Below the pieces are notes generated by a model. It made no database searches and was not told where the DNA came from. It was given only the letters and a program-made list of their open reading frames with translations. Shown here piece by piece: positions 255 through 18,335 of a stretch of DNA of 64,000 nucleotides. How positions within the stretch are numbered: position 1 is the first letter of the stretch; the number at the start of each line of letters is the position of its first letter. Made by a program: the position numbers and the translations under genes. Source of the stretch: Candidatus Latescibacterota bacterium (GTDB lineage: Bacteria; Latescibacterota; CBDEFO01); NCBI GenBank assembly GCA_965237525.1, contig CBDEFO010000008.1:1912494-1976493 (forward strand). Direction: 5' to 3'.

Positions 255-257
255 TGT

Positions 258-1376
258 CTACTTGTTTCGAGTTCCCAGCTTCACAAAGGGAGGCCGGACG
301 ACTTCTGCGGCCTTACTGCTGCCTCTTATATCTACTGCGATCTGCGTTCCTTCTTCCCTGTGATTCCACGACACATATCCCATTCCTATCCCACATTTCA
401 GGGAGGGAGAAAAGGTCCCGCTCGTTACAGAGCCTATCTCTTTTCCGTCTTTGCACAGTATCTTCTGATGACTTCTGGGTATCGCCTTTTCCACCATCTT
501 GAAGCCTACGAGTCTCTTTTTCAAGCCGTCCCTTTTCTGTCTCAGAAGGGCATCCTTGCCCACAAAGTCCTGGGGCTTATCCAGCTTGACCGTCCATTTG
601 AGGCGAGCCTCCAGGGGCGTTACGTCCTCGGTAAGATCGTTCCCGTAGAGTGGGTACCCTGCTTCTAATCTCAGAGTATCCCTTGCGCCGAGGCCCGCAG
701 GTACTGCGCCGTCTGTCGAGAGCGCCTCCCATACAGCGGCCGCATCGGACGGATCGCAGATTATCTCAAATCCGTCCTCTCCTGTGTAGCCCGTCCGGGA
801 GATAATGCACTCTTCCCCTGTGGATATCTTCCCTTCCACAAACCAGTAGTAGCCAATTTCGGAGAGGTTCACATCAGTGTGCCCAGACAAGATCTCCTCA
901 GCATGGGGACCCTGAAGCGCTATCATAGCGTATTCCTGGCTGACGTTTCGTGCTGATACATAATCAAATTCCCGCACTCTTTCTGCTGTCCACTCGTAGT
1001 CTGTATCTATCCTTGAGGCGTTGACCACAAGGAGAAAGAGGTCTTCCCTGCGCTTTAAGCAGACCAGATCGTCTATGATCCCGCCTTTTTCATTGCACAT
1101 AGGAGAATACAAAATTCTCCCTGGAACGAGGGAAGCAATGAGGTTCGGGAGCAGGTATTCCAAGAACTGTTCGGCTCTTTTCCCCTCGATTTCAATCTGT
1201 CCCATGTGAGAAACGTCGAAGATGCCGACCTTCTGTCTAACTTTGAGGTGCTCAAAGTTTATGCCCTGATACTGGACGGGCATCTCAAAACCTGCAAATT
1301 CTACCATCTTAGCGCTACTTTTGATATGCAGGTCGTAAAGAGGAGCCCTCTTAAGATCTCCTTCTGAATTTTCCAT
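258..1376 (-). CDS. gcvT: Glycine cleavage system T protein (aminomethyltransferase)
   Basis: 372-aa ORF with GcvT-like N-terminus (PLYDLH...AKMVEFAGFEMPVQY...GIFDVSHMG), folate-binding domain and typical C-terminus. Confidence 0.9.
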   Translation of the reverse strand: MENSEGDLKRAPLYDLHIKSSAKMVEFAGFEMPVQYQGINFEHLKVRQKVGIFDVSHMGQIEIEGKRAEQFLEYLLPNLIASLVPGRILYSPMCNEKGGIIDDLVCLKRREDLFLLVVNASRIDTDYEWTAERVREFDYVSARNVSQEYAMIALQGPHAEEILSGHTDVNLSEIGYYWFVEGKISTGEECIISRTGYTGEDGFEIICDPSDAAAVWEALSTDGAVPAGLGARDTLRLEAGYPLYGNDLTEDVTPLEARLKWTVKLDKPQDFVGKDALLRQKRDGLKKRLVGFKMVEKAIPRSHQKILCKDGKEIGSVTSGTFSPSLKCGIGMGYVSWNHREEGTQIAVDIRGSSKAAEVVRPPFVKLGTRNK

Positions 1377-2355
1377 AATCTTTACCTTTATCCATGTCTA
1401 TCTATCTTGTCATCCCGAAGTTGTCCAAAAAGATCACAAAGTCGGACAGACCGACCCCACCATCGCCGTTCAAGTCGAACGTTGGATCCCAATCTAGTGA
1501 ACTGTTCGTTGTCCCGAACACATCCAGAAAACGGACAAAGTCGGAAAGATCTACTTCATTATCCCCATCGAAATCGCCGGCGAGATCAATTATGCTAGAG
1601 GGCCCAGAGATATTGAACAGCACTGATATGCTGTCTCTTCTCCTGTTGACTACAACCAGGTCGCTGTCACCATCTCCGTCCAGACCCGTCATGAAAAGCC
1701 AACGCGGCCTATCACCGGCAAAGTAGTCCATCCTCACACCGAACGTTCCGTCTCCGTCGTTCAATAACACCGATACAGTGTTGCTGATTACGATAGCTAC
1801 AGCTATGTCGTTGTCTCCGTCCCCGTCTAAATCCTCAATGAATACTGACATAGGTTGAATTCCAACGCTATAGTCCTCCCTGGTGCCGAATCTCCCATCT
1901 CCTTTGTTAAGCAACATTGATACGCTATCGCCCTTCCAGTTCGCCGCAGCCAAGTCATAATGCCCATCACCGTTCAAATCCACACCTAAAACTGACCAGG
2001 GTTCATCCCCAACATCGTAGTCGGCCCTATTTGCGAACGTCCCATCTCCATTGTTTAGCAAAACTGATATGTTATTACTAGCCGAGTTGGCTACGGCCAA
2101 GTCATTGTGACCATCGCCGTTTAGGTCCGCACCATAAACTGCACGTGGACTATTCCCCACTTCATAGTCTGTCCTGGGCGCATATGTGCCATCTCCATTG
2201 TTTAATAACACCGACATGGTATTGCTCTCGAAATTACCAACGGCTAAGTCCTTATGGCCATCTCCACCCAAATCCGCGCCGAAAACTGAACGAGGTCCAC
2301 CGCCAACCGGATATACCGCCCTGGCTGCGAATGTGCCGTTTCCGTTGTTCATTAA

Positions 2356-3874
2356 AAGCCTTGTGAAATAGTTATGTCCCAGGCAGCGTCTGAAGCGCCG
2401 ATTATGGGTCAAAGAGTAGCATATCGTATCGTTTTGCTGTGGAATAAGCAAAATAGTCTTATCAGAGTTCTGGTCAGCAAGGAATAGGAGTTGTTTGAAG
2501 AACAGGATGCACTGTCTTTGACAGACAGGGCACACATAGACGCTTTCCCCCTTCTTATGAAAGATACAAGCCTCTTGAGATTCTGTACTGTTGCAACAAG
2601 ATTCAACTGTTCATTCAGTGAGGCTGGTCCTCTATAACGGGCTCGTCCCATACCGTGTTGTTGCCTGGCTTCAGCAAAGATATGTTCACTGCGTTTACGG
2701 AGTCTCCGGGAGAGTTTGTAGTCAGCTGTTAATGAGATAGACCGTGCATGATTTCTGGCTTTCGCCTCTCGCACTTTTCTATCCCGTTCGGCCTGAATAT
2801 GTGCTGGATTTGTCTTGTTTTTCCATGTAGGAATCGGTTCAATCTTCTCATCGGCTCGCAGAGGAATATGGGGTATGATTCCCCGGTCAAGTACATCAGC
2901 GATAAAATTACCAGAACCGTAACCGGTATCGGCACTAAGTGTCTGAATGTCTTTGGGCATGGTGTATGTTTCAAGGTCATCTACCATCTTAAGGGCACTT
3001 TCGGGCTCTGCTGTCCCTGTCGCCTGCGTGCCCTGAGTCTCAAGGATTACTCTGCTTTTTGTGTCGATCAGATCATGGCCCATAAACGAGAGAAAAGCCC
3101 CTTTGCCCTTCGATTTGCTGTATAAGCGCGCGTCGGGGTCTGTAGTCGAACGGTGTGTTTGGTTCGTCCACTTTTCACCATGAAAGTCTTTATCCTGAGG
3201 ATGCCCGGACCTACCCTTTGTCTTATCACCTTCAAAACCGATTCCCTTGAGATAATCATCAAGAGAAAAAGGGGGTTCTATCGGCTCAATACTTTTCACT
3301 GAAGCATCAGCTTGTATCTGAGTGCCGTCGACACTAAGGTGTTTACCGCTCACAACACCGACATCTATGCAACACTGGACTACCTGACGCATTATCCGTT
3401 CAAACAACCCACTGGATGCCCACTTGTGATTGCGAAGCTTGTTGATCGTGCTCCTATCCGGAACCGCATCATCAAATGTCTGATGACAAAACAACCGATA
3501 TGCCGCATGCATCCCCACTTCCTGACAGAGCCGATTCTCACTCAAATTATACAGATAGCCAATAAGGATCATTCGAACAACTAATTCAGGATCAATACCG
3601 GGTCTGCCATTGTCAGGGCAATAACAATCTGATACAACGTCTCGTACAAATGAAAAATCAACTGCCTCATCAATCTGACGAAGGATATGATCCTCGGGAA
3701 CTAAATCCTCCATCTGAAAATAGTGAAACATCGGATTTGTCTGTTCCTGCTCTTGTGGGGTCATTGTTTCCTCCATGTATAATATTATCAATAACATAAT
3801 ATAATACATCGGAGCTGCTTTATCAATGCTTGTTCTATACTACTTTCTGAATCTAAGGGTTTTTCACAAGGCTT
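2356..3874 (-). mobile_element. Insertion sequence copy 1 (IS5/IS1182-like DDE element, ~1.52 kb)
   Basis: 13-bp perfect TIR AAGCCTTGTGAAA / TTTCACAAGGCTT. Flanked by TSD TTAA (2352-2355 and 3875-3878). More than 99% identical to copies at 10783..12302 and 14637..16156. Confidence 0.85.
2409..3809 (-). CDS. DDE transposase (InsH-N-terminal-like domain plus DDE catalytic domain)
   Basis: 466-aa ORF filling the TIR-bounded element. N-terminal region LVVRMILIGYLYNLSENRLCQEVGMHAAYRLFC resembles the IS5/IS1182 transposase N-domain. Confidence 0.8.
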   Translation of the reverse strand: MYYIMLLIILYMEETMTPQEQEQTNPMFHYFQMEDLVPEDHILRQIDEAVDFSFVRDVVSDCYCPDNGRPGIDPELVVRMILIGYLYNLSENRLCQEVGMHAAYRLFCHQTFDDAVPDRSTINKLRNHKWASSGLFERIMRQVVQCCIDVGVVSGKHLSVDGTQIQADASVKSIEPIEPPFSLDDYLKGIGFEGDKTKGRSGHPQDKDFHGEKWTNQTHRSTTDPDARLYSKSKGKGAFLSFMGHDLIDTKSRVILETQGTQATGTAEPESALKMVDDLETYTMPKDIQTLSADTGYGSGNFIADVLDRGIIPHIPLRADEKIEPIPTWKNKTNPAHIQAERDRKVREAKARNHARSISLTADYKLSRRLRKRSEHIFAEARQQHGMGRARYRGPASLNEQLNLVATVQNLKRLVSFIRRGKASMCALSVKDSASCSSNNSYSLLTRTLIRLFCLFHSKTIRYATL

Positions 3875-4600
3875 TTAATACAGACGCAGTATTGCCGTAG
3901 AAATCGGCCACAGCCAAGTCATTATCTCCATCTCTATCGAAATCCACACTGAATACTGAATTGGGAGCATCCCCGGCAGCATAGTCCACCTTAGGTGAAA
4001 ATGTGCCATCTCCATTATTCAAGGACACTGACACAGTATTGGCGAACCTATTGGCCACAGCTAAATCGTTATATCCATCGTCATCTAAATCTGTGCAGAA
4101 GACCGATGCAGGAGCGTCCCCAGCAGGATAGTCTACTTTATTCGCAAATGTCCCGTCTCCATTATTGGACAACACAGATATATTATCGCTGAGCCAGTTA
4201 GCCACAGCCAGATCATAGTCTCCATCGTCATCCAGATCTGCGCTGAAGAGCGAGGCCGGGGTAGCACCAGCAAGATAGTCTGCCTTGGCTGTAAATGTTC
4301 CGTCTCCGTTGTTGAACAGGACAGACACATTGTCGTTGTTGAGATTGGCCACAGCCAGGTCATTATCTCCATCGCTATCAAGATCTGCGCTGAAGATCTA
4401 TACCGGACGATCGCCAACGGGGTAGTCAGTCCGGATTCCGAAAATAGCCTGTGCAGAGGCAGGCGCGTTCAAAGCGAGCGATAGCACCAGAGTAGCATAT
4501 GGGATAGTTCGACTCATTTTGATGATCTACTTGTTGGTATAGTGCTCACCATTGTGTGGAACTCCAGGCCTTGGTCCTTGGTAATCGATATTTCTTGGAT

Positions 4601-5746
4601 TTATCCAGCCCTGCCGAAGTTATCCAAGAAGATCACAAAGTCGGACAGACCGACATCCCCATCATCGTCCAAGTCAAATGCAGGATCCCAATCGGCTGAA
4701 GTGGTTGTTGCCCCAAACACATCCAGAAAACGGACAAAGTCGGAAAGTCCTACTTCACTGTCCCCATCGAAATCACCTACAAGGCCGGGGACGCCAACAG
4801 GGATATCGGAGAGATTTAACAGAACTGAAATGTAATCCATGAGGCCAGAGTTAGCCACAGCCAGGTCGTTATCTCCATCTCCATCTAAATCTGCCGCGAA
4901 TAGTGATACGGGAGTATATCCAGCGGGATAGTTTAGCTTAGGTGCGAATGTGCCATCTCCGTTATTCATCAATATTGACACATTGTCACTTCCCCCATTA
5001 GCTACAGCTAGATCACTATCGTCATCTCCATCTAAATCTGCAACGAATACTGATTTCGGGTAACGCCCAACAGCATACTCCATGTTGCTTGGAAAGGTCC
5101 CATCGCCCTTATTCAATAGCAGGGATACACTGTGCCTGGAGTAGTTAGGCACAGCCAGATCATTGTCTCTATCCCCATCCAAATCTGCAGCGAATACCGA
5201 AGAACCTCCGCTGATATCGTAGTCAGTCCTTGGCGCGAAAAGACCGGTGCGAGTAACGATTTCTATGGTCTTTTCGGCTACCGATGTAATTCCAGGTTCA
5301 TATGATTTGAATTCTCCCTTAATGGTATAGGTTCCTTCAGGTAGTGTTTCACTTTTGAGACATCCCCAATTGTCTTCTGTGCATTCGTCTAATTTCCACA
5401 TAAATAGAAAGGCGGTTTCACCGGGTTTAAGCTCCACCTCTGTTATTAGATCACAATGTGTACCAGGAGGGATTATGAACCTTCTCCCGGAAGAATCAAA
5501 ATAGGATAGAGTACAAGCCTCGTAAAATGGATTAAATATATACGATACTTTGCCCGTATTTTTTATCATAATTTCTACTGGTTCTCCAACATTGTGAGTA
5601 TCGCTGATAGCAAATTGTATATCTGAAGTGACGCTATCTATCTGACTTTTCGCTCCCGTGTTGCCGGTCGCCCAGATGTCCACATATAAATACTGATTTA
5701 GAGCAACCGATAGCACTATAACAGTAAAGAAGATCTTTCGATTCAT
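4601..5746 (-). CDS. FG-GAP/VCBS-repeat secreted protein with C-terminal dockerin-like module (intact paralog)
   Basis: Start at MNRKIFFTVIVLSVALN (signal peptide). Four FG-GAP-like repeats. C-terminal ~60 aa nearly identical at DNA level to the 3' end of the 1402..2355 fragment. Confidence 0.75.
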   Translation of the reverse strand: MNRKIFFTVIVLSVALNQYLYVDIWATGNTGAKSQIDSVTSDIQFAISDTHNVGEPVEIMIKNTGKVSYIFNPFYEACTLSYFDSSGRRFIIPPGTHCDLITEVELKPGETAFLFMWKLDECTEDNWGCLKSETLPEGTYTIKGEFKSYEPGITSVAEKTIEIVTRTGLFAPRTDYDISGGSSVFAADLDGDRDNDLAVPNYSRHSVSLLLNKGDGTFPSNMEYAVGRYPKSVFVADLDGDDDSDLAVANGGSDNVSILMNNGDGTFAPKLNYPAGYTPVSLFAADLDGDGDNDLAVANSGLMDYISVLLNLSDIPVGVPGLVGDFDGDSEVGLSDFVRFLDVFGATTTSADWDPAFDLDDDGDVGLSDFVIFLDNFGRAG

Positions 5747-5801
5747 AGTGATTCTCTTTCCAGCTAGATAGTCCACAGAATTCTGCACAGCACTGACCTC
5801 C

Positions 5802-5993
5802 TCAGAACCAATGCAGTTTCTCCCCCAGAACGTTCTCGAATATATTCAACGCTCTGTCCAGATCTTCATCTCTATGGGCCGGTGACAGGTAGGTCTTACC
5901 TCCGGGAGTCACGAAGAGGTCTCTCTTTAGGAGTTCTATCCGAAATCTCCGGGCCTTATGGGCGTCCGCCTTCAGATAGGACTCCCAATCCAC
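5802..5993 (-). pseudogene. C-terminal remnant of a class-III aminotransferase (HemL-like)
   Basis: Only ~63 aa present: ARRFRIELLKRDLFVTPGGKTYLSPAHRDEDLDRAL matches the conserved C-terminus of glutamate-1-semialdehyde aminomutase-type enzymes. No N-terminal body upstream; the LOG gene abuts. Confidence 0.55.
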
Positions 5994-6016
5994 TCGGTCT
6001 CTCCTGTATTTGACGG

Positions 6017-6695
6017 TCAGGCATCAGTTTTGTAGAAACTCTCTATAGCCTTGACAGCCTCCTGGGGTGTCTCGACTATCTGGAATATATCCATATCCTC
6101 AGGAGAAATATACTTCTCCGTCAAAAGGACTTTCTTCATCCAATCTACAAGACCGTTCCAGTATTCTCCTCCCATAAGGATTACGGGAAAGTTGTGTATC
6201 CTTTCAGTCTGAATCAAGGTTGTAGCTTCGAAGAATTCATCCAGTGTTCCCAAACCGCCCGGAAATATGACGAATGCCGAGGCGTACTTCACGAACATGG
6301 TCTTGCGGGAGAAGAAGTATCTGAACGATAACAGGGTCTCGATGTAGGGATTCGGCTTCTGCTCTGAGGGAAGTTCTATGTTCAAGCCGATGGACTTTCC
6401 CCTTTGTCCCTAACGCTCCTTTGTTGGCCGCCTCCATAATCCCCGGCCCACCACCCGTTATCACGGCGTATCCGGCCTGAGCAAAGAGCTGTGCGGTTTC
6501 TTCTGCTTTTTTGTAGAACTTGCTGTCTTCTGGAGTCCTGGCAGATCCGAAGATTGTGACTGCGGGTCCTATCTTTGAGAGATCCTCAAATCCCTCCACA
6601 AACTCCGCCACTATCCTGAAGATCCGCCACGTATCGTCTTGGGTGAAGCTGGAACTCGTGTCTCTGTCCAGGCTCGTATAATCATCTGATCTCAT
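6017..6695 (-). pseudogene. LOG family protein (cytokinin riboside 5'-monophosphate phosphoribohydrolase-like, TIGR00730) with 1-nt frameshift
   Basis: Two overlapping ORFs (6237..6758 and 6017..6385) carry the LOG motifs GGGPGIMEA and PGGLGTLDEF. Deleting one nucleotide in the acaaaggggaaagtcc run (~6400) joins them into ...TKGKSIGLNIELPSEQ.... True start is ATG at 6695..6693 with an upstream AGGAG; the longer ORF start lies inside the MITE-like repeat. Confidence 0.65.
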
Positions 6696-6729
6696 CTTAT
6701 CTCCTTGAAAAACATAAGGGGTCCCCTCA

Positions 6730-6834
6730 GTCAGACAGGAATGTCTGACCCACCACAAAGTGTGTTGATAATATGGTTGGTAGGGCAGTCCCCGATTGAG
6801 TCTATCGGGGATTCAATCGGGGATTTGTCTGTCC
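6730..6834. repeat. ~105-bp MITE-like composite element, copy B
   Basis: GTCAGACAGGAATGTCTGAC ... CCCCGATTGAGTCTATCGGGGATTCAATCGGGGATTTGTCTGTCC. Near-identical to 140..254. Confidence 0.6.
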
Positions 6835-6880
6835 ATTTGCACATCACACGGGAGTGTCTGACTCTTCTTGGGGAAAAGGT

Positions 6881-9565
6881 TCAATGCGCCTCCAACCAGC
6901 TGTCTCCGACTCCCACTTCCACCTTTATCGGCACAGAAAGTTCATATGCCCCTTCCATGTCCTCTACAATTAAGCGCTTTGCCTCCTCCACCTCATCTTT
7001 GGGGGTCTCAAAGACGAGTTCGTCGTGAACCTGAAGTATCATCTTAGTTCTCAGGTTCTCCTTTTTGATCCTTCTGTGGATGTTGATCATCGCGATCTTT
7101 ATGATGTCTGCGGCTGTTCCCTGAATAGGCGTGTTGATAGCTGTCCTTTCGGAAACTTCTCGAATCCTTGCATTGGAACTCTTGATTTCAGGAAGATACC
7201 TCCTCCTGCCCAGAAGCGTGGTTACATATCCCTTTTCTTTGGCATCCTGAATCGTCTGATCGAAGTATCTTTTGACTCCCGGATAGACCGCAAAGTAACT
7301 GTCTATAAAATCCTGCGCCTCCTTTTGGCCTATTCCCAACTGTCTGGACAGCCCGAAGGCAGTCTGTCCGTAAATCGTGGCGAAGTTGACGGTCTTTGCC
7401 TGCGCCCTCATCTCGGGGGTCACTAACTCCGGGAATACGTTGAACATAAGAGAAGCTGTCTTCTGATGAACGTCTTCATCTCTTTTGAAGGCCTCTATGA
7501 GGGCGTCGTCCCCTGAAAAGTGCGCCATGACCCTCAGCTCGATCTGAGAATAATCTGCCGACATCAAGACCCACGATCTGTCCTCCGTAATGAAGGCCTG
7601 TCGAATCCGTCTTCCTATATCCGTGCGTATGGGTATGTTCTGGAGATTGGGGTCTGAGCTTGAGAGCCTGCCCGTGGCAGCAACGGTCTGGTTGAAAGAC
7701 GTGTGTGTCCTTCTGGTCTCTAAATTGACCAATTTGGGCAGGGCGTCAACGTAGGTGGATTTCAATTTGGATAGCTGCCTGTAATCCAGAAGCAATTTGG
7801 GCAGTCTGTGTTCCTCTGCAAGTTCTTCCAAAACATCTACATCGGTGGAATAGCCAGTTTTCGTCTTCTTACCGGGGGGCAGTTTAAGCTTCTCAAAGAG
7901 GATATAGGAAAGCTGTTGAGTCGAATTGATATTGAACTTTTCGTCCGCTTCCTCGTATATCCTCTCCTCCAAGTTTTCAAGACCCGTCTTCAGCTCCTCG
8001 GACATCTCCTTTAAGAAGTCTATATCCACCGAGACACCCGACATCTCCATATCCACCAGGACATCCACCAGGGGCATTTCTATCTTAAAAAAGAGTTCTT
8101 CGAGGCCCTTCTCCCTTAGCTCATTGGACAGAACGCTCTTCAGTCTTAACGTTATATCAGCATCCTCTGATGAGTAATCGCGGGCTGTATCTACAGGCAC
8201 CTTGGCAAAGCTTATCTGCTTTTTCCCTGTCCCTATCAGATCGGAAATCGGCGTCATCTTATAGCCGAGATACCGCATGCTCAACGAATCTAAGCTGTGC
8301 TGGCGGGATGAAGGGTCTATAAGATAAGCGGCTATCATAGTATCGAAAGTGAAGCCCACAGAATCTATGCCGTATCTTTTCAGGACGGTAATATCGTATT
8401 TTACGTTCTGGCCCAACTTTTCGATTTTGGGATCTTGCAGGATCGGCTTTATCTTCTCTAATGTTAATTCTATGTCTACGTTGCCGCCCTCTTCGTGCCC
8501 TAAAGGTATATAGAAGCCCTCTTTCTGCTTCAGCGACACGGATATTCCCAGTATCTCAGCCTGCATCGCATCCACGCCAGTGGTCTCTACGTCTATGCAA
8601 AATACCCCTTCTTTTTCTATCTTCTTCAGCAGACGCTTAAGTCCGTTCTCATCCACCGTCCTGTAGTCGGCATCTTCTGCTCTTTTTTCCTTGGCTATCT
8701 CGACCAGAAACCTGTTAAACTCAAGCTCTTTGAAAACCTCTCTCAGCGCCTCAAAATTGAACTGGTTGCGCTTCAGATCCTCTATTTTGTACTCTATGGG
8801 AACATCCGTTTTTATCGTCACGAGCTCTTTGGCTCTGGTCGCATCGTCTCTTTGCTGGTTTATGTTTTCTCTAACTTTCCTTTTACTTATGGCGTCGGCG
8901 TTTTTTAAAACCTCTTCAAGGCTCCCATATTCTACGATCAATTCTAAGGCCGTCTTGGGGCCTATTCCCGAGATTCCGGGGACGTTGTCCGACGAATCGC
9001 CCACCAGACTTAAGATATCCACCACCCTATCGGGTCCTACGCCCATCTTTTCTAAGACAGCCTGTTTATCCATCAGTTCGGTCTCTTTGCCTCCTTTTGG
9101 CAGATTCATAATCTTAACGTTATCAGAGACCAACTGCATAAAATCCTTGTCCCCCGTTACCAGAATAACCTCTATATCCTCCTTTTGTGCCCTTTTGGCC
9201 AGGGTTCCCATAATGTCGTCCGCTTCGAATCCCTCAAGCTCTAAGACGGTTATCCTCATTCCCTCCAATATCTGATATATCCTCGGCAGTGAGGCGCTCA
9301 TCTTGTCCGGCATCTTCTGGCGGGTTGCCTTGTATTCCTTATACATCTTATGTCTGAAGGTAGGAGAGGGAGTGTCAAACACGACAGCTATATAATCTGG
9401 ATCTTCATCCTTTAAAAGCTTGATCATAGTCGATGTAAAACCGAAGGGGGCAGATGTATCTTCCCCCTTGGAAGTTGTCAGAGGTTCCCTGGAGGAAATA
9501 CCATAGTACGATCTATACGCCAGTGCCGAGCCATCTATTAGAAAGAGCCGTCTCCTTTTGTCCAT
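6881..9565 (-). CDS. polA: DNA polymerase I
   Basis: 894-aa ORF. 5'-3' exonuclease N-terminus (LFLIDGSALAYRSYY), 3'-5' exonuclease domain and polymerase motifs (…RRRAKTVNFATIYG…, …QVHDELVFE…). Confidence 0.95.
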   Translation of the reverse strand: MDKRRRLFLIDGSALAYRSYYGISSREPLTTSKGEDTSAPFGFTSTMIKLLKDEDPDYIAVVFDTPSPTFRHKMYKEYKATRQKMPDKMSASLPRIYQILEGMRITVLELEGFEADDIMGTLAKRAQKEDIEVILVTGDKDFMQLVSDNVKIMNLPKGGKETELMDKQAVLEKMGVGPDRVVDILSLVGDSSDNVPGISGIGPKTALELIVEYGSLEEVLKNADAISKRKVRENINQQRDDATRAKELVTIKTDVPIEYKIEDLKRNQFNFEALREVFKELEFNRFLVEIAKEKRAEDADYRTVDENGLKRLLKKIEKEGVFCIDVETTGVDAMQAEILGISVSLKQKEGFYIPLGHEEGGNVDIELTLEKIKPILQDPKIEKLGQNVKYDITVLKRYGIDSVGFTFDTMIAAYLIDPSSRQHSLDSLSMRYLGYKMTPISDLIGTGKKQISFAKVPVDTARDYSSEDADITLRLKSVLSNELREKGLEELFFKIEMPLVDVLVDMEMSGVSVDIDFLKEMSEELKTGLENLEERIYEEADEKFNINSTQQLSYILFEKLKLPPGKKTKTGYSTDVDVLEELAEEHRLPKLLLDYRQLSKLKSTYVDALPKLVNLETRRTHTSFNQTVAATGRLSSSDPNLQNIPIRTDIGRRIRQAFITEDRSWVLMSADYSQIELRVMAHFSGDDALIEAFKRDEDVHQKTASLMFNVFPELVTPEMRAQAKTVNFATIYGQTAFGLSRQLGIGQKEAQDFIDSYFAVYPGVKRYFDQTIQDAKEKGYVTTLLGRRRYLPEIKSSNARIREVSERTAINTPIQGTAADIIKIAMINIHRRIKKENLRTKMILQVHDELVFETPKDEVEEAKRLIVEDMEGAYELSVPIKVEVGVGDSWLEAH

Positions 9566-9645
9566 GATCTGAACATCCTTTTTAAGGAAAAGATTTCCTT
9601 GATAATTTACGAGTAATTAGCTATTATCTTATACGACATGAAGGT

Positions 9646-9743
9646 GGGAATGGCTGAGTCACTGGTGGGCTTCGCGGACTTCAAATCCGTTGCGGCGTAC
9701 TAACACTGCGCTGGGTGGGTTCGATTCCCACACATTCCCGCCA
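9646..9743 (+). tRNA. selC: tRNA-Sec (anticodon UCA)
   Basis: ~98-nt tRNA. Acceptor GGGAATG/CATTCCC plus discriminator G plus CCA. Anticodon loop CTTCAAA (TCA). Long variable arm. T-arm GGGTTCGATTCCC. Confidence 0.8.
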
Positions 9744-9763
9744 AAGAGATAGTAGCCCCCGCT

Positions 9764-9796
9764 CCCCCCTGATAGATTCAATCGGGGGTAGACAGG
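9764..9796. repeat. REP-like palindrome (reverse orientation) with TAGACAGG tail
   Basis: CCCCCCTGATAGATTCAATCGGGGGTAGACAGG, 20 bp after the tRNA-Sec 3' end. Preceded by CCCCGCTCCCC as in the MITE-like copies. Confidence 0.6.
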
Positions 9797-9875
9797 GTGG
9801 TCTCTCCTCCCTATTCAACATCAATGTCCCCACGGTGACCGAAGGGACACTGATCACCTGATTGGTTATTCCCTC

Positions 9876-10673
9876 TTAGAAACTGAGTGTGAAGTTCACT
9901 CCGATATTGCCTGGAGCTAGGGTCGGGAACCAGGTGATGTACTGCTTTCCAGAGACGTTCTCTGTTCTGGGTACAACACTGCAGCCGACAATGTAACCGA
10001 GCCCTGCACCGGCTACTACGTCGCTTAAGAAATGAGCATTCTTTGCAAGTCGGGAAAAGCCTACAAATGCTGCCGTGGCATAGGCGGGGATGGCGGCTTT
10101 GTGCCCATAGTGATGGCCCACCACCGCCGCCCACATAAAGGAGTTGGAAGCGTGTCCGGAGGGGAAAGAAAGGTTGTCGTTGCCGTTGGGCCGTCGGCGG
10201 CCAATGCCAAGTTTGATGCTTCCTGTCAAAGCGCTGTTGAGCACATAGCCTTGTGCCAGCGAAAAAGACATAGAGCGGAAGCGGCTGTTCTCATATAAGT
10301 TACTGATTAACAGAAGGCTGCCGAAAGTTGTACCTAAAAGAAGGCGCCTGCCTAAGATTCTGCCCACTTCGCCTACACTCTCGAGTCGCTCTTGAACATC
10401 GTCATCAAGCATGGAGGCGACGCCAGTGCCGCTCGAACTGACCAATAGCGGGGTTAAATTTGGGTACGAGAAGAGATCTCGAAAGTTCTTGACCAGTTGA
10501 TAAGGGAAATCTTTCAAAGTGGGTCTTGGTAGCGATTGATTAGTTTGAGCAGTAGACGCTTCTTCAGCCTTCTGACTGAGGAGTTTGAGTTTAAGAGTGT
10601 TGGCCCAGGTATAAGGGCTATTCCAGCTTAAGGCGATTGCCAGAAAGATGAGGCTTAAGCGTGTCCTGCACAT
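9876..10673 (-). CDS. PAP2-superfamily phosphatase (secreted/membrane)
   Basis: Signal peptide. PAP2 motifs KLGIGRRRP, PSGHAS, SRLAKNAHFLSDVVAG. Confidence 0.7.
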   Translation of the reverse strand: MCRTRLSLIFLAIALSWNSPYTWANTLKLKLLSQKAEEASTAQTNQSLPRPTLKDFPYQLVKNFRDLFSYPNLTPLLVSSSGTGVASMLDDDVQERLESVGEVGRILGRRLLLGTTFGSLLLISNLYENSRFRSMSFSLAQGYVLNSALTGSIKLGIGRRRPNGNDNLSFPSGHASNSFMWAAVVGHHYGHKAAIPAYATAAFVGFSRLAKNAHFLSDVVAGAGLGYIVGCSVVPRTENVSGKQYITWFPTLAPGNIGVNFTLSF

Positions 10674-10782
10674 AAGCTTCTGTCTCCTGATTATTTCGTT
10701 TACAAAAGCGAGAATCCAAAAACGTCATAATCTAATATACAAATAACTTCCCTTTATTGCAAAGATTTTGTCCTCGTATTAA

Positions 10783-12302
10783 AAGCCTTGTGAAAAACCC
10801 TTAGATATCAGAAAGTAGTATAGAACAAGCATTGATAAAGCAGCTCCGATGTATTATATTATGTTATTGATAATATTATACATGGAGGAAACAATGACCC
10901 CACAAGAGCAGGAACAGACAAATCCGATGTTTCACTATTTTCAGATGGAGGATTTAGTTCCCGAGGATCATATCCTTCGTCAGATTGATGAGGCAGTTGA
11001 TTTTTCATTTGTACGAGACGTTGTATCAGATTGTTATTGCCCTGACAATGGCAGACCCGGTATTGATCCTGAATTAGTTGTTCGAATGATCCTTATTGGC
11101 TATCTGTATAATTTGAGTGAGAATCGGCTCTGTCAGGAAGTGGGGATGCATGCGGCATATCGGTTGTTTTGTCATCAGACATTTGATGATGCGGTTCCGG
11201 ATAGGAGCACGATCAACAAGCTTCGCAATCACAAGTGGGCATCCAGTGGGTTGTTTGAACGGATAATGCGTCAGGTAGTCCAGTGTTGCATAGATGTCGG
11301 TGTTGTGAGCGGTAAACACCTTAGTGTCGACGGCACTCAGATACAAGCTGATGCTTCAGTGAAAAGTATTGAGCCGATAGAACCCCCTGTTTCTCTTGAT
11401 GATTATCTCAAGGGAATCGGTTTTGAAGGTGATAAGACAAAGGGTAGGTCCGGGCATCCTCAGGATAAAGACTTTCATGGTGAAAAGTGGACGAACCAAA
11501 CACACCGTTCGACTACAGACCCCGACGCGCGCTTATACAGCAAATCGAAGGGCAAAGGGGCTTTTCTCTCGTTTATGGGCCATGATCTGATCGACACAAA
11601 AAGCAGAGTAATCCTTGAGACTCAGGGCACGCAGGCGACAGGGACAGCAGAGCCCGAAAGTGCCCTTAAGATGGTAGATGACCTTGAAACATACACCATG
11701 CCCAAAGACATTCAGACACTTAGTGCCGATACCGGTTACGGTTCTGGTAATTTTATCGCTGATGTACTTGACCGGGGAATCATACCCCATATTCCTCTGC
11801 GAGCCGATGAGAAGATTGAACCGATTCCTACATGGAAAAACAAGACAAATTCAGCACATATTCAGGCCGAACGGGATAGAAAAGTGCGAGAGGCAAAAGC
11901 CAGAAATCATGCACGGTCTATCTCATTAACAGCTGACTACAAACTCTCCCGGAGACTCCGTAAACGCAGTGAACATATCTTTGCTGAAGCCAGGCAACAA
12001 CACGGTATGGGACGAGCCCGTTACAGAGGACCAGCCTCACTGAATGAACAGTTGAATCTTGTTGCAACAGTACAGAATCTCAAGAGGCTTGTATCTTTCA
12101 TAAGAAGGGGGAAAGCGTCTATGTGTGCCCTGTCTGTCAAAGACAGTGCATCCTGTTCTTCAAACAGCTCCTATTCCTTGCTGACCAGAACTCTGATAAG
12201 ACTATTTTGCTTATTCCACAGCAAAACGATACGATATGCTACTCTTTGACCCATAATCGGCGCTTCAGACGCTGCCTGGGACATAACTATTTCACAAGGC
12301 TT
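10783..12302 (+). mobile_element. Insertion sequence copy 2
   Basis: Same TIRs as copy 1. TSD TTAA at 10779-10782 and 12303-12306. Inserted ~95-110 bp upstream of cdaA. Confidence 0.85.
10849..12249 (+). CDS. DDE transposase
   Basis: 466-aa ORF differing from copy 1 at ~3 residues. Confidence 0.8.
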   Translation: MYYIMLLIILYMEETMTPQEQEQTNPMFHYFQMEDLVPEDHILRQIDEAVDFSFVRDVVSDCYCPDNGRPGIDPELVVRMILIGYLYNLSENRLCQEVGMHAAYRLFCHQTFDDAVPDRSTINKLRNHKWASSGLFERIMRQVVQCCIDVGVVSGKHLSVDGTQIQADASVKSIEPIEPPVSLDDYLKGIGFEGDKTKGRSGHPQDKDFHGEKWTNQTHRSTTDPDARLYSKSKGKGAFLSFMGHDLIDTKSRVILETQGTQATGTAEPESALKMVDDLETYTMPKDIQTLSADTGYGSGNFIADVLDRGIIPHIPLRADEKIEPIPTWKNKTNSAHIQAERDRKVREAKARNHARSISLTADYKLSRRLRKRSEHIFAEARQQHGMGRARYRGPASLNEQLNLVATVQNLKRLVSFIRRGKASMCALSVKDSASCSSNSSYSLLTRTLIRLFCLFHSKTIRYATL

Positions 12303-12396
12303 TTAAGATCGTGCAAAAAGTGGTTGTTATACTCCAAGTTTATTGTTATCTTAACTACTATGTCTATAATAAGATAAGTCAAAGGGACAACTGCCT

Positions 12397-13170
12397 ATGG
12401 AGGGCCTTGAGCTTTTCAGGATCGGTTTTCTGCCTATACGGGTAATAGACATAGTGGACATATTGGCTATCGCCTACGTCTGCTATTACATTTTTGCGCT
12501 TTTGCGAGGTACAAGAGCGGCCCAGATGATCGTGGGGCTGATCGTTTTGCTTATTGCTTCGTTTGTGACTGACAGCGTGAACATGAGTGGGCTCTCGTGG
12601 CTCTTGTCGCATCTCCGGACGGCTTGGGTGTTCGCTATCATAATCTTGTTTCAACCTGAGTTGCGGCGGATGCTGATCCGTCTGGGACAGAGCAGGGCGA
12701 TGAGGCTATTCTACAGAGTGCAGGAGAGTCGCGTTGTGGATGAGGTAGTAAATGCCTCAAGGGTATTGTCGGAGCGGGAATACGGGGCTCTTATTGTCAT
12801 AGTCAGGGACGTAGGCATAGCCGCCATTATTGAGACAGGCGTGCCGATTCAGGCAGAACTGTCGGCTGACCTTTTGACCACCATATTCACGCCGAGGTCG
12901 CCCCTCCACGACATGGCGAGTGTGATACAGGGGAATCTCGTAGTGGCCGCAAAATGTGAGCTTCCCCTCTCTCAAAGTGCGATTATAGATAGATCGATGG
13001 GAACCCGGCACAGAGCGGCGTTGGGACTCTCAGAGGAATCAGATGCTGTTGTTATCATGGTATCTGAGGAGACGAGCCAGATATCCATAGCGGTGGATGG
13101 CAAATTCATAAGGAATCTGAGCCCGGAACAGCTAAAGGACGAGTTGATAAGGCTCGTGGACAGAAGATAG
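12397..13170 (+). CDS. cdaA: Diadenylate cyclase (c-di-AMP synthase) CdaA
   Basis: Three N-terminal TM helices plus DAC domain. Strongly matches B. subtilis CdaA landmarks (IIFQPELRR, GALIVI, LGTRHRAA.G.SE.SDA..I.VSEETS.IS.A.DG). Confidence 0.9.
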   Translation: MEGLELFRIGFLPIRVIDIVDILAIAYVCYYIFALLRGTRAAQMIVGLIVLLIASFVTDSVNMSGLSWLLSHLRTAWVFAIIILFQPELRRMLIRLGQSRAMRLFYRVQESRVVDEVVNASRVLSEREYGALIVIVRDVGIAAIIETGVPIQAELSADLLTTIFTPRSPLHDMASVIQGNLVVAAKCELPLSQSAIIDRSMGTRHRAALGLSEESDAVVIMVSEETSQISIAVDGKFIRNLSPEQLKDELIRLVDRR

Positions 13171-13196
13171 ACAGACGGATTCTGGAAAAGTTTGCA

Positions 13197-14591
13197 ATGA
13201 CTGACATCTCAGAGAAACAGGATAGTACAGGTTTACAGGCTCCCAGGGTGCTTGTGGTCGGGCCGGAGTCGGAGCATACAAAAGATCTGATCGTGTTCCT
13301 AAAGGGAGAAGGGCTGGAGATCTTATGGGGAAAAGACGGCGAGATGGGGTATAATATACTGGACTCCACTCACATTGATGTTATTGTAACAGAGCTGAAG
13401 GTGCACAGGATAGATGGGATGAACCTGCTGTCAATAGCCAAAAAGAGGAACCCTGAGATATGTGTGATTGTGATAGCTGATGAGGCAAACATAGAGCTTG
13501 CCACCGAGGCGATGCGTCAGGGCGCTTACGATTTTCAGTCCAAGCCTCTAAATTTAGAAAAATTGAAGGCGGTGATAGATAGAGCCATATCGCACCAGCG
13601 TCTCGTACTGGAGGTGACAGATTTGTATGAGCGGCTGGATGATCGCCTGAGCTTCAGAAACATAGTCGGAAGGTCGAAGGCTATGGGCGAAGTATATGAG
13701 AAGATAAGGCAGGTTGCCCCTTCTCGTGCGACCGTGCTTTTGTGCGGCCAGACAGGGACAGGAAAGGAACTCGTGGCCCAGGCGATCCATCACAACAGCC
13801 CGCGGAAAGACAGTCCGTTTGTGAAATTAAGCTGCTCAGCGCTATCTGAAGGTGTGATCGAAAGCGAACTCTTCGGGCACGAAAAGGGAGCCTTCACAGG
13901 AGCCGTATCACCCAGGAAGGGCAGGTTCGAGATAGCTGACGGCGGGACGCTCTTCTTAGATGAAGTCGGAGAGATAACCCCTTCAATTCAGGTTAAGCTC
14001 TTGAGGGTCCTTCAAGAGGGCGAGTTCGAAAGGGTGGGAGGAGACATCACACGGAAGGTGAACGTCAGATTGATAGCGTCTACAAACAGGGACCTGGAGG
14101 AGATGATCCGAAGGGGAGAATACAGAAGAGATCTCTATTATCGTCTGAACGTGGTGACGGTGCATCTCCCGCGGCTGAGGGACAGGAGGGACGATATTCC
14201 GCTTCTGGTGGACGTATTCATAAGGGATTTCAGCGGGGAAAACGGCAAGGATATAACGGGAATTACCAGAGGAGCGATGAATATTCTGATGCAATACGAC
14301 TGGCCGGGAAACGTAAGGGAGTTAAAGAACTGCATAGAGGGAATGGTGGTCCTGTCGAAGGAGAAGAGTCGTCTGGAGGTCACAGATCTTCCTGAGCACA
14401 CAAGGCGTTCGGGGGCGGCATCTGATGAGGATATTCGTCTGAAGGTCGGAATGACCATGAGGGACATAGAAAAAGAGGCAATTAAGGAGACTCTGAAGCA
14501 CGTGGGATATAACAAGCCTATGGCCGCGGAGCTATTAGGGATAGGCTTAAGGACGCTCTACAGAAAGCAGAAGGAGTACGGAATAGATTGA
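13197..14591 (+). CDS. Sigma-54-dependent response regulator (NtrC family: receiver + AAA+ + HTH)
   Basis: Receiver domain with conserved D. AAA+ Walker A GQTGTGKE. GAFTGA motif. ESELFGHEKGAFTGA. C-terminal HTH. Confidence 0.85.
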   Translation: MTDISEKQDSTGLQAPRVLVVGPESEHTKDLIVFLKGEGLEILWGKDGEMGYNILDSTHIDVIVTELKVHRIDGMNLLSIAKKRNPEICVIVIADEANIELATEAMRQGAYDFQSKPLNLEKLKAVIDRAISHQRLVLEVTDLYERLDDRLSFRNIVGRSKAMGEVYEKIRQVAPSRATVLLCGQTGTGKELVAQAIHHNSPRKDSPFVKLSCSALSEGVIESELFGHEKGAFTGAVSPRKGRFEIADGGTLFLDEVGEITPSIQVKLLRVLQEGEFERVGGDITRKVNVRLIASTNRDLEEMIRRGEYRRDLYYRLNVVTVHLPRLRDRRDDIPLLVDVFIRDFSGENGKDITGITRGAMNILMQYDWPGNVRELKNCIEGMVVLSKEKSRLEVTDLPEHTRRSGAASDEDIRLKVGMTMRDIEKEAIKETLKHVGYNKPMAAELLGIGLRTLYRKQKEYGID

Positions 14592-14636
14592 AGACTTGAA
14601 ACCTTTAGAACCATCTGCGTAAAAGTGTTAGCTTAG

Positions 14637-16156
14637 AAGCCTTGTGAAATAGTTATGTCCCAGGCAGCGTCTGAAGCGCCGATTATGGGTCAAAGAGTAG
14701 CATATCGTATCGTTTTGCTGTGGAATAAGCAAAATAGTCTTATCAGAGTTCTGGTCAGCAAGGAATAGGAGCTGTTTGAAGAACAGGATGCACTGTCTTT
14801 GACAGACAGGGCACACATAGACGCTTTCCCCCTTCTTATGAAAGATACAAGCCTCTTGAGATTCTGTACTGTTGCAACAAGATTCAACTGTTCATTCAGT
14901 GAGGCTGGTCCTCTGTAACGGGCTCGTCCCATACCGTGTTGTTGCCTGGCTTCAGCAAAGATATGTTCACTGCGTTTACGGAGTCTCCGGGAGAGTTTGT
15001 AGTCAGCTGTTAATGAGATAGACCGTGCATGATTTCTGGCTTTTGCCTCTCGCACTTTTCTATCCCGTTCGGCCTGAATATGTGCTGAATTTGTCTTGTT
15101 TTTCCATGTAGGAATCGGTTCAATCTTCTCATCGGCTCGCAGAGGAATATGGGGTATGATTCCCCGGTCAAGTACATCAGCGATAAAATTACCAGAACCG
15201 TAACCGGTATCGGCACTAAGTGTCTGAATGTCTTTGGGCATGGTGTATGTTTCAAGGTCATCTACCATCTTAAGGGCACTTTCGGGCTCTGCTGTCCCTG
15301 TCGCCTGCGTGCCCTGAGTCTCAAGGATTACTCTGCTTTTTGTGTCGATCAGATCATGGCCCATAAACGAGAGAAAAGCCCCTTTGCCCTTCGATTTGCT
15401 GTATAAGCGCGCGTCGGGGTCTGTAGTCGAACGGTGTGTTTGGTTCGTCCACTTTTCACCATGAAAGTCTTTATCCTGAGGATGCCCGGACCTACCCTTT
15501 GTCTTATCACCTTCAAAACCGATTCCCTTGAGATAATCATCAAGAGAAACAGGGGGTTCTATCGGCTCAATACTTTTCACTGAAGCATCAGCTTGTATCT
15601 GAGTGCCGTCGACACTAAGGTGTTTACCGCTCACAACACCGACATCTATGCAACACTGGACTACCTGACGCATTATCCGTTCAAACAACCCACTGGATGC
15701 CCACTTGTGATTGCGAAGCTTGTTGATCGTGCTCCTATCCGGAACCGCATCATCAAATGTCTGATGACAAAACAACCGATATGCCGCATGCATCCCCACT
15801 TCCTGACAGAGCCGATTCTCACTCAAATTATACAGATAGCCAATAAGGATCATTCGAACAACTAATTCAGGATCAATACCGGGTCTGCCATTGTCAGGGC
15901 AATAACAATCTGATACAACGTCTCGTACAAATGAAAAATCAACTGCCTCATCAATCTGACGAAGGATATGATCCTCGGGAACTAAATCCTCCATCTGAAA
16001 ATAGTGAAACATCGGATTTGTCTGTTCCTGCTTTTGTGGGGTCATTGTTTCCTCCATATATAATATTATCAATAACATAATATAATACATCGGAGCTGCT
16101 TTATCAATGCTTGTTCTATACTACTTTCTGATATCTAAGGGTTTTTCACAAGGCTT
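14637..16156 (-). mobile_element. Insertion sequence copy 3
   Basis: Same TIRs. TSD TTAG at 14633-14636 and 16157-16160. Inserted ~45 bp downstream of the sigma-54 activator stop. Confidence 0.85.
14690..16090 (-). CDS. DDE transposase
   Basis: 466-aa ORF, near-identical to the other two copies. Confidence 0.8.
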   Translation of the reverse strand: MYYIMLLIILYMEETMTPQKQEQTNPMFHYFQMEDLVPEDHILRQIDEAVDFSFVRDVVSDCYCPDNGRPGIDPELVVRMILIGYLYNLSENRLCQEVGMHAAYRLFCHQTFDDAVPDRSTINKLRNHKWASSGLFERIMRQVVQCCIDVGVVSGKHLSVDGTQIQADASVKSIEPIEPPVSLDDYLKGIGFEGDKTKGRSGHPQDKDFHGEKWTNQTHRSTTDPDARLYSKSKGKGAFLSFMGHDLIDTKSRVILETQGTQATGTAEPESALKMVDDLETYTMPKDIQTLSADTGYGSGNFIADVLDRGIIPHIPLRADEKIEPIPTWKNKTNSAHIQAERDRKVREAKARNHARSISLTADYKLSRRLRKRSEHIFAEARQQHGMGRARYRGPASLNEQLNLVATVQNLKRLVSFIRRGKASMCALSVKDSASCSSNSSYSLLTRTLIRLFCLFHSKTIRYATL

Positions 16157-16437
16157 TTAGTGTCTTGGAAAATATTACTACCTTCGAATCGGGATTGGTG
16201 GCTGCTTAATAGAATTGGTGACGGTTGGTGACCGTTTGCATAGAACTTTTGAAAAAACAAATTTTTTGAAAATGTGAACAGTTTATAGTAAAAGGTCACC
16301 AAGGTCACCAAGTGAGCATTTTGGTCCATCATATTACCTTGATCTTTAACTCTTTGGAGCTCTTGATCTCTAACGTCTTGTAAATCTAAATTTCGATCTT
16401 CTGCTGACCCACCAAGGCTCAAATTAGAAAATCCATT

Positions 16438-17691
16438 TTATCTTACTTCCCCCCACTCAACCTGATTGTATATACGGTTGAACTCCTGGCTGCCGTCGTT
16501 CTCGATGACTTCCAGAGTAACACCGGGCACAAAGAGAGGTAGGTTGCCCGCGTAGAACGCCTGCTGATAATCCGACTCTCTTGTGAAAGCCCATGTCCTG
16601 GCCTCTTCTCTCCTTGAGCGGGGGGGCCAGCAGATCCTCAGCACCCGGCGCTTTTTGAGGTATTCGTCCTGTGGAGTCGGCGCACCGTCATCCACTCTGT
16701 ACTTTTCGAGAGCGTCCTGGTCTATTTCCACACCCAGACCGGGCGCTTCGGGGCAGCGGATATAGCCGTCCTTAACCTCAAGGCGCTCCTTCAACAGGTC
16801 GTCTTCAAAGAGTTCGTGACAGGTGATAGCTGGCCACCGGGCGTGCGAGAGCACTGCGCCAAGATGGACTGTGAAGGCTGTCATAATTCCTGAGCCGACC
16901 ATCTGGAGCCAGAAGGATTTATTGGACACGGCAGCAATAGTCCCCTGTCGGATGACGTTACCAGCAGAGCCGCTGATGACGAAGCCGTCGCAGACCTCCT
17001 CTTTGAGCGCGGTCATGATAGGCGGCGTGCCGAAGTGCAGACTGATAGGATGGCTGATCTGACTTCTGATCTGTCTGTAGCCTTCCACATCGGTCTGGGG
17101 TATTGGCGACTCGAAGATAGCCACGTTCTCCCTTTTTTCGAGTTCTTTTAATACAGGAAGGGCGTTGCCCGCGTTGAGGAGGAAGCCGTTGAAGTCCACA
17201 TCTAACTTGAAGCTTTCAGGAACGACCTTTGCAATAGCGTCCACCTGCTGGATGATGTCGAACCAGGGCCGGGCCTTCAGCTTGAAAGAAGTATATCCGA
17301 GCCGCTGGGCCTCCTCTGCCTCCTGTGCCCAGTCCTCTGGGGGCATATCTATAGCCCACCAGGAAATGGGACACCAGTCTCGAACTTTCGACCCGATGAG
17401 CCGATATACGGGCACGTTCTCCTGTCTTCCTACGGCGTCCAGGATCGCTATTTGAACTGCGGGATTAATAGAATCGTCCCACAGAAGCTCAAACGGGTTC
17501 CTCGCGACGAGATCCTGTGAATCCGCACCTTGACCATGCATTTCACCGTAGCCGATAACACCGGTGTCCATTCTTACCCGAAAGACGCACACGCGCTCCC
17601 CGTGAGTGCTGGCGCGGTGCATATGGCGCTCTGTCCGCGGGGAGGCAAAGGGCAGATCCAAAGTGAACATCTCAATCTGGTCGATCTTCAT
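16438..17691 (-). CDS. Enolase-superfamily enzyme (mandelate racemase/muconate lactonizing enzyme-like) with ~100-aa C-terminal extension
   Basis: Capping plus TIM-barrel domains with KLDVDFNG-type metal ligand region. Paralogous to 59489..60748. Confidence 0.7.
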   Translation of the reverse strand: MKIDQIEMFTLDLPFASPRTERHMHRASTHGERVCVFRVRMDTGVIGYGEMHGQGADSQDLVARNPFELLWDDSINPAVQIAILDAVGRQENVPVYRLIGSKVRDWCPISWWAIDMPPEDWAQEAEEAQRLGYTSFKLKARPWFDIIQQVDAIAKVVPESFKLDVDFNGFLLNAGNALPVLKELEKRENVAIFESPIPQTDVEGYRQIRSQISHPISLHFGTPPIMTALKEEVCDGFVISGSAGNVIRQGTIAAVSNKSFWLQMVGSGIMTAFTVHLGAVLSHARWPAITCHELFEDDLLKERLEVKDGYIRCPEAPGLGVEIDQDALEKYRVDDGAPTPQDEYLKKRRVLRICWPPRSRREEARTWAFTRESDYQQAFYAGNLPLFVPGVTLEVIENDGSQEFNRIYNQVEWGEVR

Positions 17692-17803
17692 GTTTGTCTC
17701 TTTCCAAATATGTAGTTTCTATGACTCTAGAATCTCATAAGGGCTCTTTGTGGGCCATTCAGGAGTGAGTCCCAGGAACATTATGCTTCCTACAAGATGT
17801 CTC

Positions 17804-18154
17804 CTACAAGATGCCTCCTACAATAAGGAGCCTGAGTTTTTCTTCCAGGTCGGTATTGTAAACTCTGTGTTCTACGCCTTCTTCATTGTACAGGGCGTCT
17901 CCCCCTTCAAATTCGTGCTTTTGACCTCCCGACTCTATGGTTCCCCGCCCCTGAAGGACATAGTATATCTCTTCACAGTTATGCCTGTGCAGTGGGGAAT
18001 GCTCCCCGGGGTCTATCTCCACTATTCCTGCGATCAGCGTCTTGGTATCAACTCCCGTTTCGGGATAGATGAGTTTCCAGTCTTTCACTCCCTTTCTCGC
18101 CTCCATCGGAGCGCCCGATACAAACTCTGATCTCTTGACCACCACTCTGGACAT
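17804..18154 (-). CDS. Cupin-domain protein
   Basis: Start ATG at 18154 with AGGAGG 7 nt upstream. Cupin motifs G.HSPLHRH...EEIYYVL.G. The longer annotated ORF runs through a REP copy and is probably an artefact. Confidence 0.7.
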   Translation of the reverse strand: MSRVVVKRSEFVSGAPMEARKGVKDWKLIYPETGVDTKTLIAGIVEIDPGEHSPLHRHNCEEIYYVLQGRGTIESGGQKHEFEGGDALYNEEGVEHRVYNTDLEEKLRLLIVGGIL

Positions 18155-18313: not shown

Positions 18314-18335
18314 ACCCCCGATTGTTTCTATCGGG
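18314..18335. repeat. REP-like palindrome (forward)
   Basis: CCCCCGATTGTTTCTATCGGGG. Confidence 0.6.

Follow-up and report, generated by a model that had tools for sequence, protein, structure and literature searches.

The element described here, an insertion sequence (IS) present in three copies in a bacterial chromosome, has its closest described counterparts in the IS5 and IS1182 families. IS5 itself is about 1.2 kb long, has ends that read GG... and encodes a transposase of about 330 amino acids (aa), and members of the IS1182 family range from 1.3 to 1.95 kb. IS5 duplicates a pyrimidine-T-A-purine (Py-T-A-Pu) tetranucleotide (PMC5493358), the IS1182-family element ISPse1 is 1653 bp long with 4-bp direct repeats (PMC3281130), and the IS1182-family MITEPye1/ISPye18 pair also makes 4-bp repeats (PMC11578231), so that the length of the repeat does not decide between the two families. 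We analysed a 64-kb stretch of a Candidatus Latescibacterota contig (CBDEFO010000008.1), the whole of which is called the window, and the three near-identical IS copies that it holds, A, B and C (Table 1). The repeated element is very probably a DDE insertion sequence with one gene, from the IS5/IS1182 superfamily. Copy A was inserted recently, and copies B and C, both intergenic, are older and are also present in a sister strain.

The three insertions, their empty sites and their ages

Alignment of the copies together with their flanks gave two substitutions between B and C, five substitutions and one 1-bp indel between A and B, and eight differing positions between A and C. A repeat search likewise returned inverted arms of 1528 nucleotides (nt) at 10780-12307/14632-16159 and of 1499 nt at 2352-3850/10808-12306, both 100% complementary after rounding. 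Perfect 13-bp terminal inverted repeats (TIRs) of the sequence AAGCCTTGTGAAA close both ends of A, B and C, and the window has just six exact occurrences of this sequence, one per end per copy, where 0.08 would be expected by chance. A preliminary description, made by reading the DNA, had reported three copies of about 1.52 kb, only a handful of nucleotides apart, with 13-bp TIRs and a separate 4-bp flanking repeat for each copy (TTAA, TTAA and TTAG); all of this was borne out, the repeats at all six ends and the distance between copies at 2-8 nt. A seventh TIR-like match at position 20046, with one mismatch, was set aside as chance, there being no IS sequence beyond the match. An Rfam scan of the window retrieved only two tRNAs, neither of them within the IS.

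Table 1. Coordinates in the window of the three IS copies, their parts and the genes that they split or adjoin
Feature	Position	Strand	Remarks
IS copy A	2356..3874	-	1519 bp; TIRs 2356-2368 and 3862-3874; within FG-GAP/VCBS-repeat gene
IS copy B	10783..12302	+	1520 bp; TIRs 10783-10795 and 12290-12302; divergent PAP2/cdaA intergenic region
IS copy C	14637..16156	-	1520 bp; TIRs 14637-14649 and 16144-16156; convergent intergenic region between sigma-54 activator gene and enolase-superfamily gene
Target-site duplication of copy A	2352..2355 and 3875..3878		TTAA, + strand letters
Target-site duplication of copy B	10779..10782 and 12303..12306		TTAA, + strand letters
Target-site duplication of copy C	14633..14636 and 16157..16160		TTAG on + strand, CTAA in element orientation
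Transposase gene, copy A	2409..3764	-	451 aa; longest reading frame to 3809, 466 aa
Transposase gene, copy B	10894..12249	+	451 aa; longest reading frame from 10849, 466 aa
Transposase gene, copy C	14690..16045	-	451 aa
Promoter-like site TTGATA-17-TATATT	10832..10860	+	Left end of copy B, upstream of transposase gene; consensus match only, 10/12
Ribosome-binding site GGAGGA	10883-10888	+	Copy B, ahead of ATG 10894
Predicted catalytic codons, copy B	D146 11329-11331; D279 11728-11730; E360 11971-11973		R367 alongside
FG-GAP/VCBS-repeat gene split by copy A	1402..4352	-	Fragments 1402-2355 and 3879-~4352; 147-nt tandem repeats; dockerin-like tail
cdaA	12397-13170	+	Between inverted copies B and C
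Sigma-54-dependent response regulator	13197-14591	+	Between inverted copies B and C
Promoter-like site for cdaA	12343-12370		Kept downstream of copy B

Each copy contains one intact open reading frame (ORF), which is 466 aa long if counted from the first ATG, the length originally given for the transposase. A product of 451 aa, starting at ATG 10894 in copy B, is probably the true one, since GGAGGA stands upstream of that ATG, the public gene calls for exactly these three transposases are 451 aa long, and the N-termini of transposase homologues coincide with this start in the alignment. In the 466-aa numbering, the copy A protein differs from that of copy B by V181F, S335P and S440N, with the DDE residues intact, and the copy C protein by a single residue, E20K (E5K in the 451-aa numbering). 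The Pfam domains found were DUF772, which is of the InsH N-terminal type and supports the InsH-N-like domain first suggested, DDE_Tnp_1 and DDE_Tnp_1_6. In an alignment of 38 homologues that extends down to 47% identity, residues D146 (in SVDGTQ), D279 (in ADTGYG) and E360 (in RSEHIFAEAR, with R367) never vary, and all three window copies have them; matched to known IS4/IS5-type motifs, these residues form a predicted catalytic triad. Like a DDE-type IS, the element has one transposase gene, whose D, D and E residues are predicted to be catalytic.

Two related loci provide empty sites for the copies. The first, L014, was obtained from sample ERZ25067264, assembled independently from another sample, and is collinear with window positions 1-19549 at 99.4-99.7% identity (99.4% over 15.7 kb). 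L014 shares copies B and C, with position and orientation unchanged, and lacks copy A; the site of A there is a single TTAA, the exact four bases that the two window flanks of this copy have in common, and reads ...GTTCATTAATACAG.... The second, L013, is a locus in OZ252149.1, a 4.54-Mb Candidatus Latescibacterota metagenome-assembled genome whose polA falls in the 90% cluster of the window polA; the latter is identical to a protein (P0149) encoded on a contig of 2,030,145 bp. In L013, neither of the sites B and C carries the IS. Site B is a single TTAA, and so is site C, where the window has TTAG; a base next to site C is also substituted, identity in this region being only 86-96%. Hence one tetranucleotide stands at A in L014 and at B and C in L013 against two in the window, with the 4-bp and 2-bp registers reading alike for a palindromic TTAA. 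All three copies are therefore polymorphic for presence, A being absent from L014, and B and C from OZ252149.1. When copy A is excised together with 4 bp, the gene that it splits reads through for at least 475 aa, of which 4/475 residues differ from the intact gene of L014, and the register of the 147-nt repeats in that gene is restored (spacing 1670 = 147 + 1519 + 4).

These comparisons confirm A, B and C as real, separate insertions of a bona fide DDE insertion sequence: none shares its duplication with another, and for each of them a related strain has the corresponding empty site. The view of them as independent insertions holds. We did consider whether the copies might be collapsed or chimeric placements of one IS, as the contig is metagenome-assembled, 1.5-kb repeats at 99.5-99.9% identity are classic trouble spots, and a private 1-bp insertion common to B and C could stem from consensus polishing. 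Nevertheless, B and C recur in the independent assembly of L014, placed to the base and with unchanged orientation. All six junctions run collinearly into unique DNA, and for every copy the flanks are unique, the duplication is exact and a relative has the exact empty site; moreover, excision of copy A restores both the ORF and the repeat register. The earlier worry about an assembly artefact is accordingly not borne out, and we regard this explanation as highly improbable.

A composite transposon is less credible still. Two inverted copies, B and C, do bracket 2,334 bp with two genes, cdaA and a gene for a sigma-54-dependent response regulator, which could have been imported as a unit. However, the outer flanks are unlike (TTAA left of B, TTAG right of C), so that there is no single shared outer duplication and each copy instead has its own pair, and L013 has the gene order PAP2-cdaA-sigma-54 regulator of the window without any IS at either site. 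Because of that gene order, cdaA and the regulator gene are best described as native genes and not cargo, and by the same comparison B and C bracket them without having moved either gene. Taken together, the empty sites, the collinearity, and the restored ORF and register effectively rule out collapse or chimera, a composite transposon, and a fixed ancient repeat.

The copies differ in age. Copy A is a recent, strain-specific insertion, because it is absent from L014, whose flanking DNA differs by only 0.25-0.64%, and it is the only one of the three that is demonstrably recent. Since B and C occupy the same sites in the same orientation in L014, these two predate the split from that strain. 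The preliminary description had read all three as recent insertions of an active element; this stands for copy A and for activity, given the absence of A from a locus that is 99.4-99.7% identical, and fails for the recency of B and C. Equal recency of all three, with the 2-nt difference between B and C as a sign of youth, could draw on the 99.5-99.9% identity among the copies and on their three intact ORFs. In contrast to what it would predict, B and C lie at identical sites in L014 within flanks that are 0.17-0.64% apart, and the orthologous IS copies are 13-14 nt apart; that both strains acquired the IS separately at these two exact sites, each time in matching orientation, is very unlikely. 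We therefore hold equal recency to be very unlikely.

The near-identity of B and C calls for another explanation. Each of the two is 13-14 nt from its own L014 orthologue (the L014 copies compared lie at 7247-8765 and 3394-4912) versus 2 nt between B and C, and in the 2,334 bp between them only 4 nt differ between the window and L014. The private 1-bp insertion, at IS position 25, is common to window copies B and C, G520 is common to all three window copies, and T669, A1211 and T1250 are common to the two L014 copies. The IS copies thus group by genome and not by locus, a pattern of concerted evolution as judged from these shared positions. That B and C are closer to each other than to their own orthologues points to homogenisation or polishing and not to recency. 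Gene conversion among the many copies per genome, which would keep the copies within one genome alike, is the likely cause, with consensus polishing of long reads as a possible alternative. Two points weigh against our overall interpretation here. The homogenisation of B and C could be such a polishing artefact instead of biology, and the catalytic triad and the promoter are motif matches, with mobility read from sequence comparison.

Target site and length of the duplication

The transposase would bind the two ends of the IS, excise or copy the element (presumably by cut-and-paste chemistry), and insert it where a Py-T-A-Pu tetranucleotide has been cut in a staggered fashion, the repair of which would produce a 4-bp duplication; the promoter-like site and the ribosome-binding site within the IS itself may serve the transposase gene. 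We examined the target in a long-read set of 17 copies of this IS, the three window copies included, with 24 flanks in the tested subset. Flanks on short contigs from the Joint Genome Institute (JGI) metagenomes were used only for target preference and not for matching of duplications, because short-read contigs through a 1.5-kb repeat may join the flanks of different copies. All 17 long-read copies have flanks that are Py-TA-Pu or one step away from it, with Py-TA-Pu at 23/24 flanks of the tested subset; among relatives at 47-75% aa identity, the motif is present at 83/94 flanks, against a window background of 0.7%. The three window copies, at TTAA, TTAA and CTAA in element orientation, have the 4-bp Py-T-A-Pu target of the IS5 group. 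Four copies have the non-palindromic flank pair CTAA/CTAA, a direct repeat and not an extension of the TIRs.

A 4-bp duplication is the best reading of these flanks, and a likely one. Several observations nevertheless tell against it. Identical 4-mers stand on both sides in only 10/17 long-read copies, and the central TA matches in 17/17; the expectation that the flanking 4-mers would be duplicated at other copies is consequently upheld as to their always being Py-TA-Pu-like, and not as to a perfect match. In five of the seven copies with unequal flanks, the left flank begins with T and the right flank with C, never the reverse. One IS copy in another strain (L100, 2391-3909) sits 55 nt into leuB, has a left flank that is not leuB, which is a synteny break, and has CTAA as its right flank; a 99.06% identical strain (L101, 5645-5700) has the uninterrupted leuB site as cTTAAa, so the C adjoining the right end in L100 is missing from the empty site. 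Lastly, since TTAA is a palindrome, the empty sites of the window are equally compatible with a duplication of TA alone (2 bp), the IS then gaining a base at either end.

These same observations can be assembled into a different account, in which only the central TA (or 3 bp) is duplicated and both ends of the element extend by one further base (R-AAGCC...GGCTT-Y), or a base of the donor flank is carried over. The 17/17 agreement at TA against 10/17 for the full 4-mer, the five mismatches that are all left-T/right-C, and the C at the right end of L100 where L101 has TTAA all suit it, and the palindromic TTAA sites and the 147-nt repeat register are compatible with both registers. Against it, in all four copies whose left flank begins with C, the right flank does too (CTAA/CTAA; Fisher test about 0.05), and a 9:8 split of an IS-borne base would be strange for copies with >99.5% identity. 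Copies B and C are unlike at this base, with only 2 nt of difference inside the element. The left flank of L100 is non-syntenic, hence a recombinant or an assembly join, and 4-bp repeats are documented for relatives in both IS5 and IS1182 (PMC5493358, PMC3281130). On balance, we consider this account improbable and keep to the 4-bp duplication. The left-T/right-C pattern would fit conversion or recombination into the flank, a 2-bp duplication with an IS-borne base, or carry-over of donor flank.

Placement between IS5 and IS1182

The doubt raised at the outset as to whether the element belongs to IS5 or to IS1182 proved justified by the scores of the family models. The transposases score best against the IS1182 model NF033551 of NCBIfam (263.1-263.3 bits, from model position 5 of 488), and they pass the cutoff of 140 bits of the IS5_4 model NF033581 with 150.6-150.8 bits; all 38 of the 38 aligned homologues match both models, with best E values of 2e-90 (IS1182) and 4e-49 (IS5_4). 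Two facts speak against a firm assignment to either. The curated IS1182 cutoff of 270 bits is missed by 7 bits, and the match to IS5_4 covers only residues 45-337, in two stretches; for both reasons, membership of a family is not clean. Because the IS5_4 cutoff is passed, the NCBI pipeline names relatives "IS5 family transposase" (P0110; Geobacillus pBt40). Proteins with an IS5 label have 28-41% aa identity to the window transposase, the best match on an annotated plasmid being the pBt40 protein so labelled, at 41% aa, and no E. coli IS5 copy was among the plasmid protein matches listed.

In its architecture the element resembles the IS1182 family: its one transposase, of about 450 aa, combines DUF772 with a DDE domain that ends in DDE_Tnp_1_6, its size of 1519-1520 bp lies within the family's range, and it has a 4-bp duplication. 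The closest named IS found was ISCfr1, an IS1182-family element of enterobacterial plasmids (29.8% aa identity over 88% of the protein, E = 2e-45); it differs from the window element in its 25-bp TIRs (CGGCCGATTCTGTTGAAAAAGTAGC) and in the lack of a Py-TA-Pu flank in the copy examined. ISEfa7 is more distant, at only 24% aa identity. With E. coli IS5, on the other hand, the element shares the duplicated Py-T-A-Pu tetranucleotide and the combination of DUF772/InsH-N with DDE_Tnp_1. It departs from IS5 in preferring TTAA/CTAA, where IS5 prefers CTAG, in its termini (AAGCC...), and in size, at 451 aa and 1.52 kb; InsH of IS5 is about 120 aa shorter than the window transposase. We would therefore place the element in the IS5/IS1182 superfamily, with a transposase of IS1182-like architecture and an IS5-like target, and treat its family as borderline.

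Closer in sequence are unnamed relatives from sediment and groundwater metagenomes and the element on Geobacillus pBt40, which have 41-75% aa identity, the terminal motif AAGNCNTGTGAAAA, Py-TA-Pu flanks and lengths of 1.49-1.59 kb. The ends of the pBt40 element are of the same kind (TAG, then AAGGCCGGTGAA). These relatives are neither curated nor named and lie mostly on short contigs, on which the two flanks may come from different copies. It is possible, though we would not put much weight on it, that the window element and its metagenomic relatives, with their AAGNCNTGTGAAAA termini, Py-TA-Pu target and transposase of about 450 aa, make up an uncurated group between IS5 and IS1182, and that the directional mismatches described above reflect a non-canonical step, such as a donor-flank or end base that travels with the right end, or gene conversion that regularly enters the duplicated target.

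The element is abundant and varied in its population. The 90% cluster of the transposase holds 411 distinct sequences, on many contigs of this population, and in OZ252149.1 the transposases of at least eight loci are related to it, with 85-98% aa identity. Among the OZ252149.1 loci L001-L008, we could distinguish at least three sub-lineages of the IS, with about 98%, 87-88% and 87% nt identity to the window copies and lengths of 1519, 1516 and 1525 bp, from which it follows that the IS either has diverged inside this population or entered it on several occasions. The possibility that two of these loci, L003 and L004, are the reciprocal products of an inversion was dropped, as the flanks expected in that case (a/b and b/a) do not fit. 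A search of PLSDB plasmids with the IS DNA returned no match, nor did a search of the JGI metagenomes with the exact 21-nt left-end pattern.

Host genes and other features of the window

The gene split by copy A belongs to a tandem pair of paralogous FG-GAP/VCBS-repeat genes (4601-5788 and the IS-split 1402-4352) with 147-nt (49-aa) repeats at 61-75% identity. The 3' ends of the two paralogues are 83% identical (1400-1578 versus 4599-4777), and the split gene terminates in a dockerin-like double EF-hand motif. The OZ252149.1 version of this gene encodes 775 aa, which indicates that the number of repeats varies between strains. At copy B, promoter-like sites (consensus matches) remain on both sides of the insertion in the divergent PAP2/cdaA region.

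The synteny between the window and L013 stops about 170 bp past site C (window position about 16329), which is another rearrangement between the strains. Near the syntenic locus, L013 also has an inverted pair of IS3-type fragments at 650-2523, with HTH_Tnp_1 and HTH_21 ORFs at 949-1260/650-913 and 1913-2224/2260-2523.

Elsewhere in the window, a selenocysteine tRNA with the anticodon TCA adjoins polA (Rfam tRNA-Sec, 70 bits, 9646-9739; ARAGORN, 9646-9743); the organism presumably synthesises selenoproteins. Two neighbouring small proteins with TFIIB-type zinc-ribbon domains (PF13453) are encoded on the minus strand at 22096-22782 and 23984-24478. An "aerotolerance"-type cluster with a MoxR AAA ATPase, DUF58 and BatA/BatD (VWA) proteins, together with a DUF4340 protein, spans 31228-49447, and a bacterial Roc-COR (ROCO) GTPase with an N-terminal leucine-rich repeat (Pfam LRR_4, Roc, COR-A and COR-B) is encoded at 40491-42485.

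For the organism, copy A inactivates a gene for an FG-GAP-repeat surface protein in this strain only, and the inverted pair of B and C may offer a ready substrate for an inversion or for future mobilisation of cdaA. The element itself, from an uncultured phylum, is an ordinary IS without a name, with many copies in one Latescibacterota population. Its relevance lies mostly in annotation, where the three copies can be entered as real with confidence, and the known picture of transposition is unchanged by it. Nevertheless, the comparison of strains provides a small and clean example of IS copies that appear to evolve in concert within a genome.

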